This document shows positions 860 through 29,329 of a stretch of 64,000 bases of DNA, piece by piece. The stretch is from Acidobacteriota bacterium (GTDB lineage Bacteria; Acidobacteriota; UBA6911; RPQK01; JADFOI01). A program made the translations under genes and the position numbers. The notes beneath the pieces were generated by a model, which saw only the letters and a list, made by a program, of their open reading frames with translations, made no database searches and was not told the origin of the DNA. The stretch lies in assembly GCA_963663035.1 (NCBI GenBank), contig OY760074.1, positions 64,001 through 128,000 on the forward strand, written 5' to 3'. Numbering within the stretch: position 1 is the stretch's first letter; each line of letters starts with the position of its first letter.

Positions 860-2239
860 GAGGTTCCGTCAATAAGTGTGTAAATAGACATCAGGCGGCT
901 TTCTCCTGGGTGACTGGGTTGACTGGAACTCCATTGACATATTGGGCTCCTTGGTAGACATCCTTCATCAAGTGGGGAGCCTTCAAACGGCGAAATCTCT
1001 TCTCAGCGACCAGCAGCATCTTCCAGATGACAGCCCGTGCGTTGGCCACTTTCTTGAACCTTCGAGCAGCATCGGTTCGCAGTCGCAGAGCAGAGAAGGG
1101 AGACTCCACTGGGTTGGTAGTCCGCAGATGTTGCCACTGCTGTTTGGGATAGTTGTAAAACGTCACCATCCGCTCCCAGTCCTGGTCGATCAGATCAGCC
1201 GCTGCCTCCAGGCCTCTCTTGCTACACCAATGTTGGAATCGTCCTTTGACTCGCTCGGCTTCCTGCCGTGTTTCTGCATAAGGGATCTGCCGCAACATCA
1301 ACAAGGCCGCTTTGTGCCGACTCTTGGGGATCTTGGCCAGCAAGTTGACGATGCGATGATTCCAGCATCTCTGCTCGTCGGCTTCTGGGAACACGTTGCG
1401 CAACGCTCCCCAGATCCCCAGATGCCCGTCAGCGATCACCAGACGGGGTGGGTTCATCCCCCGCTCTTTGAGATCCCGCAGCACTTCGGACCAGCTCTGG
1501 GTCGATTCTCGATAACCACTACTGACGGACACCACCACTTTAGTGCCATCACTTAAAGCGGCGATCACTACCAGAATCACGGCCTTCTCCTTCTCCAGCC
1601 CTGCTTTGATGTACACGCCGTCCGCCCACAAATACACGACTTCCAGATCATCCAGCCGACGGCTCTGCCAGGCCTCCATTTCTCCCTGCCACTTCTGTTT
1701 CAACCGGGCTACGGTGCTGGGGGACAGCGGCGCTTCTTCCCCTAAAAGCCCTCTCAAGGCCAGATCGAAATCCCCCTCGGCCAGACCATGTAAATAGAGT
1801 TCTGGAATCAAGTCTCGTACCTCTCGCGTTCGCTTGGCAAACAGCGGCAAGACCCGGCTCTCAAAACGCTCTTCCAGATCCCGCACTCGGGGACGCCGCA
1901 GCTTGATCGTTCCGCAACTCATCGTCAGTCGCCGCTCCTTGCCGTAGCCGTTGCGATAGCCACCGGAGGCGTCCACTTCTCGGCGACGCTCATTCTTTCT
2001 TCGTCCCAGCAGCTGTGTCACTTCATCCTCCAGCAGTTCCTGTACGTAAAACTGGATCTGCTCTCGCACCCACTCTTCCAGCTGTTCAAAGCAGACTCTT
2101 GACTCCACACTGTGATCAATGTTCTTCTTGCTCATGGCGGTGTGACTCCTTCCTTTCGGGCTCTTCCGCCCGGGTTTTTATTTTCACCCGGAAGGATAAT
2201 CACCGCCTGTGCTATTTACACACCTTTTGAGGGTAGCTC
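860..2239 (-). mobile_element. IS256-family insertion sequence
   Basis: Imperfect terminal IRs (gaggttccgtcaataagtgtgtaaatag / gagctaccctcaaaaggtgtgtaaatag); 9-bp TSD CGATAAAAA at 851-859 and 2240-2248. Confidence 0.95.
891..2135 (-). CDS. IS256-family (mutator-type) transposase
   Basis: 414 aa; YRNGY, WADGVY, DG..G, QRCWNH, TTNPVES motifs. Confidence 0.95.
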   Translation of the reverse strand: MSKKNIDHSVESRVCFEQLEEWVREQIQFYVQELLEDEVTQLLGRRKNERRREVDASGGYRNGYGKERRLTMSCGTIKLRRPRVRDLEERFESRVLPLFAKRTREVRDLIPELYLHGLAEGDFDLALRGLLGEEAPLSPSTVARLKQKWQGEMEAWQSRRLDDLEVVYLWADGVYIKAGLEKEKAVILVVIAALSDGTKVVVSVSSGYRESTQSWSEVLRDLKERGMNPPRLVIADGHLGIWGALRNVFPEADEQRCWNHRIVNLLAKIPKSRHKAALLMLRQIPYAETRQEAERVKGRFQHWCSKRGLEAAADLIDQDWERMVTFYNYPKQQWQHLRTTNPVESPFSALRLRTDAARRFKKVANARAVIWKMLLVAEKRFRRLKAPHLMKDVYQGAQYVNGVPVNPVTQEKAA

Positions 2240-2446
2240 CGATAAAAAACATACATATGCTAATATACCAATCGATAAGTCATTCTGGCACGCTGTCGGC
2301 GACGAGGTTCTACTACATCCAGATGACAGAGAAAATCCAAGCTGGAACCAAGACGCACTTTGAACTGCCCGGTGGCCCCGGCCGCACACGGGTGCAACGT
2401 CACCGCGACGACCCTCGCTTCCACGACCTGCTTCCATGAGAAGGCC

Positions 2447-2760
2447 CTTTCTTGTCAAGACCGACTTGGCGGTCAAAAGTCCGGGACCGGGTGATTAAGC
2501 CAGCTGATGGGAGTTCGCTTAATCGATCCAGTGATGCTGATTTTGTTTGCCTTGCTTCCATCCGCACTCTTTTTCAGCCCTTGATTTGGACTGGGTGCAT
2601 GTAAGGGTTCGTCAAACTGGGCGCTGCAATCTGCGGCTCGTTCTCTTCCGAAGGAAGGAACAGCAGGTCGTTCGCAGTCACCCGAACTGGGCATTTGGAT
2701 CATTGAGGTTAACTCCATGGGCGGGTCACGTTCACCGGAATCCCTTCTGGGTTCAATCTC
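2447..2760 (-). ncRNA. Putative bridge/seek RNA region of IS1111 copy 1 (boundaries approximate)
   Basis: Non-coding 3' end containing cgacctgctg - hairpin - ccgcag, matching both halves of the insertion target. Confidence 0.75.
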
Positions 2761-3849
2761 TTAGGCAGCCCCTTCCAGGTACTCTTGATTGTTGTACAGC
2801 GGTTCATAGGTCTCTCCTGTGACCCACAGATGGTGCAGCAGGACCGAGAGTTTACGAGCCACCGCCACCACGGCTCGCTTCTTGGCGCTTTTTCCTCCTC
2901 TGGAAGCAATCCTCTCCCCATAGCGTCGCAAGTCACAATCCGAGCCAAAAGGTCCCAGGATGTACTGGGAACTACCGACCAGTAGTTTGCGAACGAATCG
3001 GTCGCCGGCTTTGGTAATCCTCAACTGAGGATCCCGATTCCCGGATTGGTCTTGTCTGGGAGTGAGCCCCAGATACGCTCCCACCTGGCGACTTCTTCCA
3101 AACCGATGGGCATCCTCGAGGGTCAAAACAAAGGCCAGAGCTGTGATCGGTCCTACTCCTCGAACTTGCTGAAGGTTCTCGGTGTCCGGATACTTCTGCT
3201 GGCACAGTTGCTGAATCTGCCGATCGTATTGGCGGATCTGTGCGGTGAGCTGTTGGATCATCTCCAGCAGGGGCTCCAAAGCCATCTTCAGGCAACCCGG
3301 AATGTGGAGTTTGACCCGATGGGGAAAAGCCTCTGTGGAACAACTGGGCAGACGCTCCCCGAAGGCTTTCACAGATCCTCGGATAGGATTGACCAGCCGG
3401 GTTCGGGCTCTCACCAGCTCATCTCTAGCTTTAACCACCGCCAGGTCCGCTTGAGCGGCTTCGCCCCGATGCTGAATCGGATACAACAGCTCGGGATCCA
3501 CTCTTCCTAAACGTCCCAGAAGCTCTCCATCCTTGCGGTCCGATTTCTTTCGGTTCTGGCTGATGAGTCGAACCTGTCGGGGATTGGCCACGATTTCTTC
3601 GTGTCCTTGCTCCTTGGCTATCGCTTGCACCCACCGAGAGTGGGTTCCCGTTTCCAACACCACCCGCATTTTTGGCTGAGACTTGAAGAACCTTTCCATG
3701 GCTCGTCGTTGAGTCTTCACCCTACCTTCTTCCACTTTCTGTCCTGACTTGTCGATGATGCAGTAGTAGGAAAATTTGTCTCCCAGGTCCAAACCCATCG
3801 TCAGTTCCGGAATCTGTGTGATCTCTTTGATAGAATCTTTCATGGCCAA
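2761..3849 (-). CDS. IS110-family DEDD recombinase/transposase
   Basis: GLDLG, LETG, KSDRKDG, GVGPITA, YLGLTPRQDQSG motifs. Confidence 0.95.
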   Translation of the reverse strand: MAMKDSIKEITQIPELTMGLDLGDKFSYYCIIDKSGQKVEEGRVKTQRRAMERFFKSQPKMRVVLETGTHSRWVQAIAKEQGHEEIVANPRQVRLISQNRKKSDRKDGELLGRLGRVDPELLYPIQHRGEAAQADLAVVKARDELVRARTRLVNPIRGSVKAFGERLPSCSTEAFPHRVKLHIPGCLKMALEPLLEMIQQLTAQIRQYDRQIQQLCQQKYPDTENLQQVRGVGPITALAFVLTLEDAHRFGRSRQVGAYLGLTPRQDQSGNRDPQLRITKAGDRFVRKLLVGSSQYILGPFGSDCDLRRYGERIASRGGKSAKKRAVVAVARKLSVLLHHLWVTGETYEPLYNNQEYLEGAA

Positions 3850-4045
3850 GCTCCTTTGCTAAAGAGTTAATATTTTGCAGCCCAAGCTTTGGGACTGCGT
3901 TCCTCTTACTGCAGCTCATTTTAGAGACTGCCTCTGAGGAGTTTGGCCTTCTCATCCTTATCTGCTGCGGATGAACCTGGCGCCGTAGATGAAGCTGATC
4001 TTTCAGGTCGCGTTTCAACTGATAGAATAGTGCCTGAGGTGTTTA

Positions 4046-4327
4046 ATGAGAGCCATTTGGAAGAACATCACTCTTGCTGAAAGTGATCGAACTATTGTCG
4101 TGGAAAGGAATCATTACTTTCCCCCTGATTCCATCAACAGAACCTATTTTGAAGACAGCGAAACTTACACCCACTGTTCCTGGAAGGGGCAGGCCAGTTA
4201 CTACGACATCGTGGTGGGCGGAGAACGGAATGGAGATGCCGCCTGGTACTATTCAGAACCCAAGGAAAAGGCGGCACAAATCAAGAATCATATCGCCTTT
4301 TGGAAGGGCGTTGAAGTCGTTCCATAA
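4046..4327 (+). CDS. DUF427 family protein
   Basis: NHYFPPDSI, THCSWKGQASYY, DAAWYY motifs; GAGG RBS. Confidence 0.9.
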   Translation: MRAIWKNITLAESDRTIVVERNHYFPPDSINRTYFEDSETYTHCSWKGQASYYDIVVGGERNGDAAWYYSEPKEKAAQIKNHIAFWKGVEVVP

Positions 4328-4338
4328 GGCCTCTTTTT

Positions 4339-4391
4339 GCGACGACCCTCGCTTCACTGACCTGCTGCTGCGGATGAATTTGGAGCCTTGA
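4339..4391 (+). repeat. Repeat A (DDPRFTDLLLRMNLEP*), intact and unoccupied by IS
   Basis: gcgacgaccctcgcttcactgacctgctgctgcggatgaatttggagccttga. Confidence 0.9.
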
Positions 4392-5472: not shown

Positions 5473-5642
5473 TTCTGAGATCCTCCCCCCACTTTCTCCG
5501 CTTTTCCGATGTCCTTTCGCCACTGGCCCAAGCGTGAAAGAACACGGCAGCAGATGTTTGCCACTGTCTCTTTGGACTTTTTCAAGCTCCAGAAGAGCCT
5601 GACGCAAGTCTAACAAAGTTGACTTCCTTCGTTCTTCTCTTC

Positions 5643-5696
5643 CGCGACGACCCTCGCTTCCAGGACCTGATGCGGCGCATGAACTTAGAGCCGTGA
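5643..5696 (+). repeat. Repeat A (RDDPRFQDLMRRMNLEP*)
   Basis: Direct sequence match to the other copies. Confidence 0.9.
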
Positions 5697-5829
5697 TTGA
5701 TTCAACTGTAACCATTTTGTAACCGCGACAACCCAAAACCACCCCATTCCACACCACTCCAGCCAAGATAGACAACACGTAACTACTTGGTAAATCTAGT
5801 GGTTTCAGTTGGTTAGGATTTACCCGTTG

Positions 5830-5887
5830 AGGACTTAAAATCCTGTGAGGGTTTCCCTCGTGAGGGTTCGAGTCCCTCCCCGGGCAC
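5830..5887 (+). repeat. 3' half of tRNA-Leu(TAA), att-like duplication, copy 1
   Basis: Anticodon loop ggacTTAAAAtcc, long variable arm, T-arm gagggTTCGAGTccctc, acceptor strand cccgggca; no 5' half or D-arm. Confidence 0.88.
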
Positions 5888-5949
5888 GCTTCTGACGCGG
5901 GTTTCAGCCAAATTGAGTCTCCCCGACTCACCCTCCAAACCCCCAAATT

Positions 5950-6013
5950 GTGCCTGAAGTGTGCCCGCGCCAAACTCACTCCAACTCACTCCAGCCAAAA
6001 TAGAGGGGAATTT
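5950..6013 (+). repeat. Repeat E: gtgcctgaagtgtgcccg + (ccaactcact)n arm-like repeat
   Basis: Recurs at 9922-9985, 10104-10123, 29279-29317, 46676-46697, 49741-49770 and 63628-63646. Confidence 0.8.
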
Positions 6014-9752: not shown

Positions 9753-10043
9753 AGGTCTCCTCCGATGCGCAAGGTCGCTCCAGTAGTACTAGGAGCCCTA
9801 GAGCAGTCGAGGAGACATTTCACGAAAGTATCTTCCTTGCCTCTCCTTGGCCTCGAAGACTTTCATGAGTATTCTGATAGGTATTCCATGAAGGAACAAA
9901 TGCGGAAGGCTTCGGGGGGTTGTACCTGAAGTGTGCCCGCGAGGATCCAACTCCAACTCACTCCAGCTCACTCCAACCAAGATAGCGATTTAAGAGCGAC
10001 GGGATTTCTCCCGATTTGAAAGGTACTTAGAAATCCCACTTCC

Positions 10044-10101
10044 AGGACTTAAAATCCTGTGAGGGTTTCCCTCGTGAGGGTTCGAGTCCCTCCCCGGGCA
10101 C
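10044..10101 (+). repeat. 3' half of tRNA-Leu(TAA), copy 2
   Basis: Identical to 5830-5887. Confidence 0.88.
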
Positions 10102-10155
10102 GCTTACTCCAGCTCACTCCAACTTTCTCAAACCAATTTAGAGGGCCAATTTTGA

Positions 10156-16568: not shown

Positions 16569-16774
16569 CTTCTTTGTCTCAATATAAAATGATGCACTAG
16601 ATCTCCTGTCTGGTGTGGATGGACATGGTTGTGAAGCCATGCCAGGCAAGCGAATCCCATCCAGCCTCCCCACCATAAATCTCAGTTACCTGCTGCATAA
16701 AAATAACTTCCGCTTCTCTTACCGGCCTGAATACTGTCACATGGACGTATAGTCGGCTTATCGGAAAGTCGTTG

Positions 16775-16817
16775 TCGCTTCACTGACCTGCTGCGGCGGA
16801 TGAATCTAGAGCCGTAG
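16775..16817 (+). repeat. Repeat A (RFTDLLRRMNLEP*)
   Basis: tcgcttcactgacctgctgcggcggatgaatctagagccgtag. Confidence 0.88.
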
Positions 16818-18826: not shown

Positions 18827-18921
18827 ATAATCGGCCAAACCATCTCCCACTATAAAATCACAGAGAAACTGGGCGGCGGTGGGATGGGTGTGGTGTACTT
18901 GGCCGAAGAGACAAAGCTCTC
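18827..18921 (+). pseudogene. Kinase N-terminal stub (ATG changed to ATA)
   Basis: [30 protein letters not shown]. Confidence 0.85.
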
Positions 18922-23782: not shown

Positions 23783-23858
23783 GAAACGAGGGCCCACATC
23801 CCAACTATACACACTAAAGCCGCACAAGCTTCCCTCAACCTGCTTCTATGAGAAGGCC

Positions 23859-24172
23859 CTTTCTTGTCAAGACCGACTTGGCGGTCAAAAGTCCGGGACC
23901 GGGTGATTAAGCCAGCTGATGGGAGTTCGCTTAATCGATCCAGTGATGCTGATTTTGTTTGCCTTGCTTCCATCCGCACTCTTTTTCAGCCCTTGATTTG
24001 GACTGGGTGCATGTAAGGGTTCGTCAAACTGGGCGCTGCAATCTGCGGCTCGTTCTCTTCCGAAGGAAGGAACAGCAGGTCGTTCGCAGTCACCCGAACT
24101 GGGCATTTGGATCATTGAGGTTAACTCCATGGGCGGGTCACGTTCACCGGAATCCCTTCTGGGTTCAATCTC
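23859..24172 (-). ncRNA. Putative bridge/seek RNA region, copy 2
   Basis: Same sequence as copy 1. Confidence 0.75.
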
Positions 24173-25261
24173 TTAGGCAGCCCCTTCCAGGTACTCTTGA
24201 TTGTTGTACAGCGGTTCATAGGTCTCTCCTGTGACCCACAGATGGTGCAGCAGGACCGAGAGTTTACGAGCCACCGCCACCACGGCTCGCTTCTTGGCGC
24301 TTTTTCCTCCTCTGGAAGCAATCCTCTCCCCATAGCGTCGCAAGTCACAATCCGAGCCAAAAGGTCCCAGGATGTACTGGGAACTACCGACCAGTAGTTT
24401 GCGAACGAATCGGTCGCCGGCTTTGGTAATCCTCAACTGAGGATCCCGATTCCCGGATTGGTCTTGTCTGGGAGTGAGCCCCAGATACGCTCCCACCTGG
24501 CGACTTCTTCCAAACCGATGGGCATCCTCGAGGGTCAAAACAAAGGCCAGAGCTGTGATCGGTCCTACTCCTCGAACTTGCTGAAGGTTCTCGGTGTCCG
24601 GATACTTCTGCTGGCACAGTTGCTGAATCTGCCGATCGTATTGGCGGATCTGTGCGGTGAGCTGTTGGATCATCTCCAGCAGGGGCTCCAAAGCCATCTT
24701 CAGGCAACCCGGAATGTGGAGTTTGACCCGATGGGGAAAAGCCTCTGTGGAACAACTGGGCAGACGCTCCCCGAAGGCTTTCACAGATCCTCGGATAGGA
24801 TTGACCAGCCGGGTTCGGGCTCTCACCAGCTCATCTCTAGCTTTAACCACCGCCAGGTCCGCTTGAGCGGCTTCGCCCCGATGCTGAATCGGATACAACA
24901 GCTCGGGATCCACTCTTCCTAAACGTCCCAGAAGCTCTCCATCCTTGCGGTCCGATTTCTTTCGGTTCTGGCTGATGAGTCGAACCTGTCGGGGATTGGC
25001 CACGATTTCTTCGTGTCCTTGCTCCTTGGCTATCGCTTGCACCCACCGAGAGTGGGTTCCCGTTTCCAACACCACCCGCATTTTTGGCTGAGACTTGAAG
25101 AACCTTTCCATGGCTCGTCGTTGAGTCTTCACCCTACCTTCTTCCACTTTCTGTCCTGACTTGTCGATGATGCAGTAGTAGGAAAATTTGTCTCCCAGGT
25201 CCAAACCCATCGTCAGTTCCGGAATCTGTGTGATCTCTTTGATAGAATCTTTCATGGCCAA
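24173..25261 (-). CDS. IS110-family transposase
   Basis: Protein identical to 2761-3849. Confidence 0.95.
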   Translation of the reverse strand: MAMKDSIKEITQIPELTMGLDLGDKFSYYCIIDKSGQKVEEGRVKTQRRAMERFFKSQPKMRVVLETGTHSRWVQAIAKEQGHEEIVANPRQVRLISQNRKKSDRKDGELLGRLGRVDPELLYPIQHRGEAAQADLAVVKARDELVRARTRLVNPIRGSVKAFGERLPSCSTEAFPHRVKLHIPGCLKMALEPLLEMIQQLTAQIRQYDRQIQQLCQQKYPDTENLQQVRGVGPITALAFVLTLEDAHRFGRSRQVGAYLGLTPRQDQSGNRDPQLRITKAGDRFVRKLLVGSSQYILGPFGSDCDLRRYGERIASRGGKSAKKRAVVAVARKLSVLLHHLWVTGETYEPLYNNQEYLEGAA

Positions 25262-25483
25262 GCTCCTTTGCTAAAGAGTTAATATTTTGCAGCCCAAGCT
25301 TTGGGACTGCGTTCCTCTTACTGCAGCTCATTTTAGAGACTGCCTCTGAGGAGTTTGGCCTTCTCATCCTTATCTGCTGCGGAGGTGGTTTAGGTATTGG
25401 TGTGTTCTAAGCGTAATTCCATTCTTAACCTGACAGAGGTGTCCGATAGCATTTCTCACCGAATCGTGCAGGGAGATTCTGAG

Positions 25484-29257: not shown

Positions 29258-29329
29258 ATTGCCATCTCGTGGCCGAGATGTGCCCGCGGCGAACTCACTC
29301 CAACTCACTCCAGCCAATCTGCAGTCAGT

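Follow-up and report, generated by a model that had tools for sequence, protein, structure and literature searches.

An RNA-guided mechanism was published in 2024 for the insertion sequences (IS) ISEc11, ISPa11, ISKpn4 and ISPst6 (PMC11187229) and for IS621 (PMC11208160, PMC11208158). According to the account of Siddiquee et al. (PMC11187229), IS1111 elements encode their guides, named seekRNAs, in the 3′ non-coding region, with the match to the top strand of the target located 5′ of the match to the bottom strand, and the order of the two guides relative to the transposase gene is reversed between IS1111 and IS110. Bridge RNAs are furthermore reported as predicted in 93% of IS1111 elements (PMC11208160). 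Here we analyzed an element found in a 64,000-nt stretch of DNA, hereafter called the window (positions 64,001 to 128,000, forward strand, of contig OY760074.1 in assembly GCA_963663035.1), which is part of the 3.59-Mb single-contig genome of an Acidobacteriota bacterium; coordinates are those of the window if not otherwise stated. The best explanation of its features, which we hold to be very probably correct, is an IS1111 element having a two-loop guide RNA aimed at the tail codons of kinase genes. Its placement as a new member of the RNA-guided IS1111 elements, for which the mechanism is already known, and not as a new system, is well supported. Acidobacteria were unmentioned among the matches listed for literature on IS110, bridge RNA or seekRNA.

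The body of the element covers 1529 bp (2433..3961, minus strand), as delimited by its copies in the genome and by joins in contigs of RNA libraries, with a core dinucleotide CT on either side (2431..2432, being AG on the transposase strand, and 3962..3963, both given for the plus strand). The position of the core could be fixed because the ends are conserved among relatives that are only about 50% identical, which on the transposase strand keep ...CAT(G/A)GA-AG at one end and AG-AT(G/A)... at the opposite end. Insertion leaves no target duplication beyond this core, with CT found on both sides of all four genomic copies and a single CT in empty sites, and in contigs from two RNA libraries position 2430 is joined directly to 3962, an omission of exactly 1531 nt that corresponds to the empty site. 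The transposase gene (2761..3843, minus strand) encodes 360 residues with a DEDD/RuvC-like N-terminal domain (PF01548, DEDD_Tnp_IS110, 4.5e-17) and an IS110-type C-terminal domain (PF02371, Transposase_20, 7.6e-19), and it scored 224 bits, at a cut-off of 140, with the NCBIfam model NF033542 of an ‘IS110 family RNA-guided transposase’. In the C-terminal domain, YLGLTPRQDQSGN fits the motif GL-P----S(t)G, given as the IS1111 transposase signature by Siddiquee et al. (2024, PMC11187229). Subterminal inverted repeats, with arms ATGAGAAGGCC (2436..2446, at the transposase-3′ end) and GGCCTTCTCAT (3945..3955, at the transposase-5′ end), are 11 nt long, 100% complementary and placed 3 and 6 nt from the element ends, within the range of 7–17 bp by which such repeats define IS1111 elements according to Durrant et al. 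(2024, PMC11208160). The non-coding DNA amounts to 328 nt downstream of the transposase gene (2433-2760) versus 118 nt upstream of it (3844-3961). Judged by its sequence, with all features tested matching, the region 2433-3961 is an intact IS1111-group insertion sequence of the IS110 family. The closest plasmid-borne IS110-family proteins are only about 29–35% identical to the transposase and are labelled merely ‘IS110 family transposase’, and the protein likeness of IS621 to the window transposase is weak (E 4.6e-7, residues 198-346 only).

Compared with ISEc11, ISPa11, ISKpn4 and ISPst6 as described in the parts of PMC11187229 drawn upon here, the element shares the DEDD transposase with the GL-P----SG motif, the subterminal inverted repeats and the long 3′ non-coding region. 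Also in common are two short guides for opposite target strands that overlap at the insertion point, the 5′ one being the match to the top strand, as well as repeated sequences as targets and natural retargeting between relatives. It differs in having as its target the coding 3′ ends of paralogous kinase genes together with orphan fragments of them, where the targets described there are REP, attC or transposon inverted repeats, and in having a second loop that is a candidate for donor matching.

A preliminary description of the window had proposed that all genomic copies should be collected and their flanks aligned. Doing so by BLAST of the genome with 2301-4100 gave four copies, here called c1 to c4, which differ at a handful of positions and are each flanked by CT: c1, the first window copy (2433-3961, minus strand, cores at 2431-2432 and 3962-3963); c2 (genome 842,130-843,715); c3, the second window copy (23845-25373, minus strand, cores at 23843-23844 and 25374-25375, RNA at 23955-24101); and c4 (near genome 1,204,068-1,206,925). 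Both window copies rejoin, as had been proposed, to ACCTG-CT-GCTGCGGA, and with the core fixed by the conserved ends, the full rejoined target of c1 reads ...CCACGACCTG-CT-GCTGCGGATGAAC... Uninterrupted look-alike sites are also present in the genome, for example at genome position 381,389.

The 3′ non-coding end encodes, as modelled, a bridge or seek RNA of 147 nt in two modules (2543..2689, minus strand). The consensus structure was obtained with RNAalifold from an alignment of 15 relatives, and a covariance model, R1, was built from it. This model gave 116.9 bits for both window copies (E 1.9e-27 for the RNA at 2543..2689), and full-length matches, all of them on the transposase strand, were found behind the transposase gene at 32 of the 39 loci from genomes and 20 of the 25 from metagenomes, with no match among the genome loci in L001 (contig ends), L006, L010-L012, L036 and L038. 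Locus L021 (genome G152) was excluded from every alignment and count, and the tally of 26/401 genomes includes G152. In an alignment of 28 distinct rows (A2), 96.6% of the cells were paired and 12 of the 16 pairs were changed on both sides, a result reached by none of 500 shuffles, and sliding the partners against each other lowered the pairing to 25–51%. A stem named P1, with the 5′ strand GGGUG-A-CUGC (2674..2683, minus strand) and the 3′ strand GCAG-CGCCC (2619..2627, minus strand), closes the first loop and shows changes on both sides in eight of its nine pairs. The CUGC/GCAG part of it, already recognized as a closing ctgc/gcag stem in the preliminary description, becomes CGAC/GUCG, GCAC/GUGC and UCUC/GAGA in three relatives. 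U-G pairs, occurring in six rows at one pair, are compatible with the transposase strand and not with the opposite strand. Folding of the non-coding end, a check proposed in the preliminary description, set apart the RNA proper, which folds better than 197 of 200 shuffled sequences (z -2.67); the whole 353-nt end including flank folds no better than shuffles (z -0.90).

Two side observations concern non-coding ends of other shape. The element of L006, on a contig of a delta-proteobacterial metagenome-assembled genome, is a relative of 51% identity whose ends are of the same type and whose non-coding end is only about 120 nt long; model R1 finds no match there, and only a GAAUGGAAGCA-like string is left. 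The element may be RNA-less or may be served by an RNA encoded elsewhere. The elements of L005 and L027 have 3′ non-coding ends of 550–575 nt, with the RNA set apart from the right inverted repeat by an extra 250–300 nt, a stretch that in L005 includes a terminator-like hairpin.

Within the first module, the transposase strand reads GGGUG-A-CUGC G AACGACCUGCU, a hairpin (2640..2661, minus strand, helix 2 of the consensus), GA GCCGCAGAU U and GCAG-CGCCC. The hairpin separates two strings that match the two halves of the target. Three strings reported in the preliminary description are indeed found on the minus strand, namely cgacctgctg (2661-2670), the hairpin tccttccttcggaagagaac (2640-2659) and ccgcag (2631-2636). 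The 5′ target guide, ACGACCUG-CU (LTG-like, 2662..2671, minus strand), agrees in sense with the plus strand over the left target half and the core and would therefore pair with the opposite strand; it equals the left half of the c1 and c2 targets over 8 nt plus the core, in agreement with what had been said of the first string. The 3′ target guide, GCCGC-AG (RTG-like, 2629..2637, minus strand), is followed by AU, corresponding to the first two bases of the element in a handshake-like manner suggested by analogy with IS621. Here the earlier reading needed adjustment: it had found the right stretch as the reverse complement of the right half, with ccgcag placed 3 nt out of register with the core, the register of the family being GCCGC-AG(-AU) at 2629-2637. 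The 3′ guide fits CT-GCGGC, the DLLRRM version of the target, perfectly, as in L002, L004 and L069, and has one mismatch to CT-GCTGC of all four copies in the genome and one to the site of L003.

The relatives occupy quite different sequences, which allowed comparisons between cognate and non-cognate pairs of guide and flank, with 20,000 permutations per test. For the 5′ loop strand against the reverse complement of core plus right flank, scored as the longest common run, the 23 pairs from genomes gave 163, and the permuted values had a mean of 88.3 (standard deviation 6.2, maximum 125), with 0/20,000 reaching 163. The 3′ loop strand against the left flank, scored as the identity run ending at the core, gave 116 for 21 pairs, with permuted values at a mean of 50.0 (standard deviation 5.5, maximum 77) and again 0/20,000 reaching the observed value. 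The same was seen in a held-out set of metagenome contigs fetched after model building, both for the 5′ guide (109 in 16 pairs versus a permuted mean of 68.5; 0/20,000) and for the 3′ guide (98 in 15 pairs versus 57.1; 0/20,000). Runs of at least 8 nt were common to 5′ guide and flank in 12 of the 23 cognate pairs from genomes, and a 3′ guide run of at least 6 was found in 11/21 cognate versus 10/420 non-cognate pairs. Among close copies, the variable guide base (ACGACC with CACGACC, AAGACC with CAAGACC) equals the flank base in eight of ten insertions, the exceptions being c4 and L004. With its covarying structure, guides that track the flanks and an agreeing held-out set, the proposal, made in the preliminary description, of a two-part guide loop directing the element to the kinase-tail repeat stood up well, as a reading of sequences and by analogy with the published systems.

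We also compared the guides with the CT-core sites of the whole genome, setting aside four matches that are the elements' own guide loops. For the 15-nt site that the guides define, three sites have at most one mismatch and two of them are occupied (c1 and c2); 13 sites have two mismatches, with one occupied (c4), and 122 have three mismatches, with one occupied (c3). One orphan tail (L046, positions 1,676,997-1,677,060 of genome contig C1) reads CCACGACCTG-CG-GCGGCGGATG; it matches at all 13 guide positions, has CG in place of the CT core and is empty, which as a single site fits with a requirement for the core.

With regards to the nature of these sites, c1, c2 and c4 interrupt the sequence coding for ...PRDDPRF(H/Q)DLL|LRMNL(A/..)P*, where the bar marks the insertion point. 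At c1, the left target half holds the kinase-tail codons (P)RDDPRFHDL of an orphan fragment, ‘repeat A’ (2403..2430, plus strand), and the right half the codons (L)LRMNLAP and a stop (3964..3988, plus strand). Both window copies had earlier been placed inside repeat A, which was right for c1 and not for c3. The latter resides in an intergenic look-alike, TCAACCTG-CT-GCTGCGGAGG, where the repeat A profile finds no match at the flanks and where the sequence ...CTCAACCTG-CT-GCTGCGGAGGTGG... has only the 15-mer ACCTGCTGCTGCGGA, comprising the guide-covered bases, in common with the repeat. A search of the genome with the repeat profile gave 30 pieces, nine of which are the ends of long open reading frames (ORFs) of 487–822 codons and at least 13 of which are orphan fragments; one of the long ORFs, when scanned, proved to encode 794 residues that include a kinase domain and TPR repeats. 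Transposases at least 87% identical to that of the window were found in other Acidobacteriota assemblies and metagenomes, giving, with this genome included and with L071 and L073 counted as the same site, 12 distinct insertions of the lineage with at least one readable flank. As many as 11 of these 12 are in the ...DDPRFxDLL|xRMNL tail of Ser/Thr-kinase-TPR genes, in the variants DLL|LRM, DLL|RRM, DLL|WRM and DLL|RGM, with c3 as the sole exception. The suggestion that the element had specialized on ‘DLLLR’ codons was in this respect correct as to the repeat and too narrow as to the codons, with the guide fitting DLLRR better and having one mismatch to DLLLRM.

All eight of the occupied tails with a readable gene side are orphan fragments, in which the upstream frame is open for just 12–90 codons, and the nine intact kinase-TPR genes of the genome are empty, each having at least two mismatches to the guides. 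Insertion swaps the final residues of the frame for ...DLLP*. That the lineage survives solely where the tail of a protein-coding gene is present as a decayed copy is a conjecture that we put forward with little confidence; if true, the orphan tails would be safe-harbour landing pads or may arise or spread through some link to the element, and the guide variants ACGACC and AAGACC, tracking the codon variants FHDLL and FQDLL, would represent natural retargeting in progress.

The second module of the RNA holds another loop, with a GCAC/GUGC stem and a hairpin downstream of the target loop, flanked by ...ACCCUUACAU and ...GGAUGGAAGC. It contains a candidate 5′ donor guide, CCUUA (2601..2605, minus strand), complementary to TAAGG of the left end of the element, and a candidate 3′ donor guide, AUGGA-AG (2555..2561, minus strand), identical in sense to the right end with its core (CATGGA-AG), the latter proposed on comparative grounds. 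We read this loop, from these sequence matches, as probably donor-binding.

Taken together as a mechanism, the 328-nt 3′ non-coding end would encode an RNA of about 147 nt with two stem-closed internal loops. In the target loop, the 5′ guide ACGACCUG-CU would pair with the strand opposite the left half and CT, and the 3′ guide GCCGC-AG, complementary to core and right half, would be followed by the handshake-like AU, matching the first bases of the element. In the donor loop, CCUUA would be complementary to the left end and AUGGA-AG would have the sense of the right end and core; by these matches the loop would read the junction at which the ends of the excised circle meet. Once loaded with the RNA, the transposase would then recombine the circular element into ACGACCTG-CT-GCGGC-like sites, these being the last codons (FxDLL|xRMNL) of Ser/Thr-kinase-TPR genes encoding about 790 residues and of their orphan 3′ fragments. 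That the RNA is made, that it is bound by the transposase and that it directs recombination we infer by analogy with the studied elements.

Such a layout resembles IS621 as presented in PMC11208160 and PMC11208158, as far as those accounts are drawn upon here, with two pseudo-symmetric stem-closed loops, a left and a right target guide addressed to opposite strands with the CT core in common, a donor loop that would read the circle junction, and two bases after the right target guide that match the donor (the handshake). On the strand with the CT core, the order is left guide, hairpin and right guide, as in IS621. Seen from the transposase gene it runs the other way, in line with the difference between IS1111 and IS110 reported by Siddiquee et al. 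IS621, unlike the window element, belongs to the IS110 group, and its RNA is encoded 5′ of the gene, on the CT strand.

A simpler possibility, following the model of a short seekRNA, is that only one loop works, such that the first module reads both the target and the resident flanks, and the second is a protein-binding scaffold in which the likeness to the ends is inherited. For ISEc11, as far as the source is drawn upon here, an 82-nt seekRNA with only two target matches was sufficient for movement, and the donor flanks needed changing together with the guides (PMC11187229), all of which would agree with such a model. The G/A base of AU(G/A)GA-AG in the second loop is the same as that of the right end, CAT(G/A)GA-AG, in 20/20 relatives, a count that overstates the evidence because only two to three changes are needed on the first tree, with just one to two independent pairs in a sign test; the 5′ donor match is also short, at 4–6 nt. 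In the held-out set, however, the base agreed in a further 17/17 relatives, including co-changes within two otherwise uniform groups, that of L049 (97% identical to the window element, with A both at the element end and in the RNA) and that of L061. Moreover, L025 has AA as the core in RNA and DNA alike, for the left-end variants TAAGG, TGGT, TGGA and TGAG the loop has the complementary strings CCUUA, ACCA, UCCA and CUCA, respectively, and the two loops are alike in geometry, which is also the case in IS621. On balance we find the scaffold-only model unlikely, yet worth keeping in mind, and prefer the reading with two working loops.

It is far less probable that the protein itself recognizes the sequence or shape of the repeat and that the guide-like strings are by-products, for example of target DNA captured into the end of the element. 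That view would suit a repetitive target such as this one, comparable to the REP and attC targets formerly explained by structure, and also an RNA that is here deduced from sequence. Against it, the two strings are located in the internal loop of a stem having compensatory changes, they change together with the flanks in more than 35 relatives with unrelated targets, and c3 is inserted in a non-repeat site sharing only the 15 guide-covered bases. That the non-coding end resembles the flanks by mere chance can be dismissed almost entirely: the second string is only 6–7 nt and the target is a low-complexity CTG run, as chance would favour, but the 11-mer ACGACCTGCTG, expected 0.03 times in the 64-kb window, is found there only in the two guide loops, and each of the four permutation tests gave 0/20,000. 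Several further findings do weigh against an RNA-guided two-loop element and should be seen together. Alignments A2 and A3 were made to the model, tilting their pair counts toward the structure. A scan of 2300-4100 with Rfam 15 gave no family at E up to 10, though Rfam may hold no family of this kind, and model R1 had no match in the IS110-family elements of L047 (Escherichia coli plasmid) and L048 (Phenylobacterium), because of which homology at the sequence level to the experimentally studied seekRNAs is not established. All four genomic copies reside in sites with one mismatch to the 3′ guide, with the better-fitting CT-GCGGC tails being empty. The 5′ guide match was below 8 nt in 11 of the 23 genome pairs, and only 4 nt in L029, L028, L035 and L023; these poorly matching elements are single copies that may have gone off-target, or their ends may have been wrongly called. 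For the 5′ donor guide, 157 of 20,000 permutations reach the observed value, which is modest support, and the right end of c3 (23845-23852) has CATAGA while its RNA keeps AUGGAAG, thus A at the end and G in the RNA, which would amount to a G-T wobble if the RNA pairs with the bottom strand. Finally, a scan for promoters of the sigma-70 type found none inside the element, and the contigs of four RNA libraries (X15-X18, with a single contig in X18) that are 90–99% alike to the element and cover it, including 2438-2753, were assembled, may contain DNA and give neither transcript ends nor strand.

With regards to expression, a TTGACA motif is located 22 nt from the right end of the element (2453..2458, minus strand), and among the 17 held-out relatives with an identified end, 16 have TTGAC at a distance of 22–23 nt from it. 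By analogy, the motif might serve as the -35 box of a promoter formed when the two ends meet in the circle, a type of junction promoter described for the IS110 family. The circle-junction join was not listed among the assembled RNA-library contigs.

The element adds a clade from uncultured Acidobacteriota to the RNA-guided IS1111 elements, with at least 50 genome and metagenome loci having in common one bridge RNA of about 150 nt in which both loops are readable. The dozens of naturally retargeted guides make up a comparative set for the study of core requirement, mismatch tolerance and handshake bases, and the lineage would provide an example in which the conserved codons of a family of host genes are the target of an RNA-guided element.

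Some further features of the surroundings were noted. Copy c4 (locus L044) is split by an IS3-family element (genome contig C1, about 1,205,100-1,206,370) with an ORF having rve, rve_3 and HTH_21 domains, and its transposase frame contains a TGA. The host kinase gene at c1 appears to be broken up: an IS256/Mutator-family transposase gene (PF00872, 1e-59; 891-2135, minus strand) lies between a repeat resembling a kinase N-terminus (78-169, with more copies at 18827 and 28089) and the orphan tail of c1. Integrases had been suspected beside the orphan tails, and Pfam showed instead this IS256/Mutator transposase and unrelated genes. Three further empty orphan kinase tails (DDPRFxDL..RMNLEP*) are found within 15 kb, at 4337-4391, directly 3′ of a DUF427 gene, at 5642-5696 and at 16765-16817. 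ARAGORN found no tRNA gene in 1-32000, a region that holds a 79-nt repeat, 90% alike in its two copies (5813-5891 and 10027-10105), which resembles the 3′ half of a tRNA (GGTTCGAGTCCC...). Adjoining this 79-nt repeat is a second repeat containing ACTCACTCCAACTCACTCCAGCCAA, present at 5943-5998, 9915-9970 and 29262-29317.

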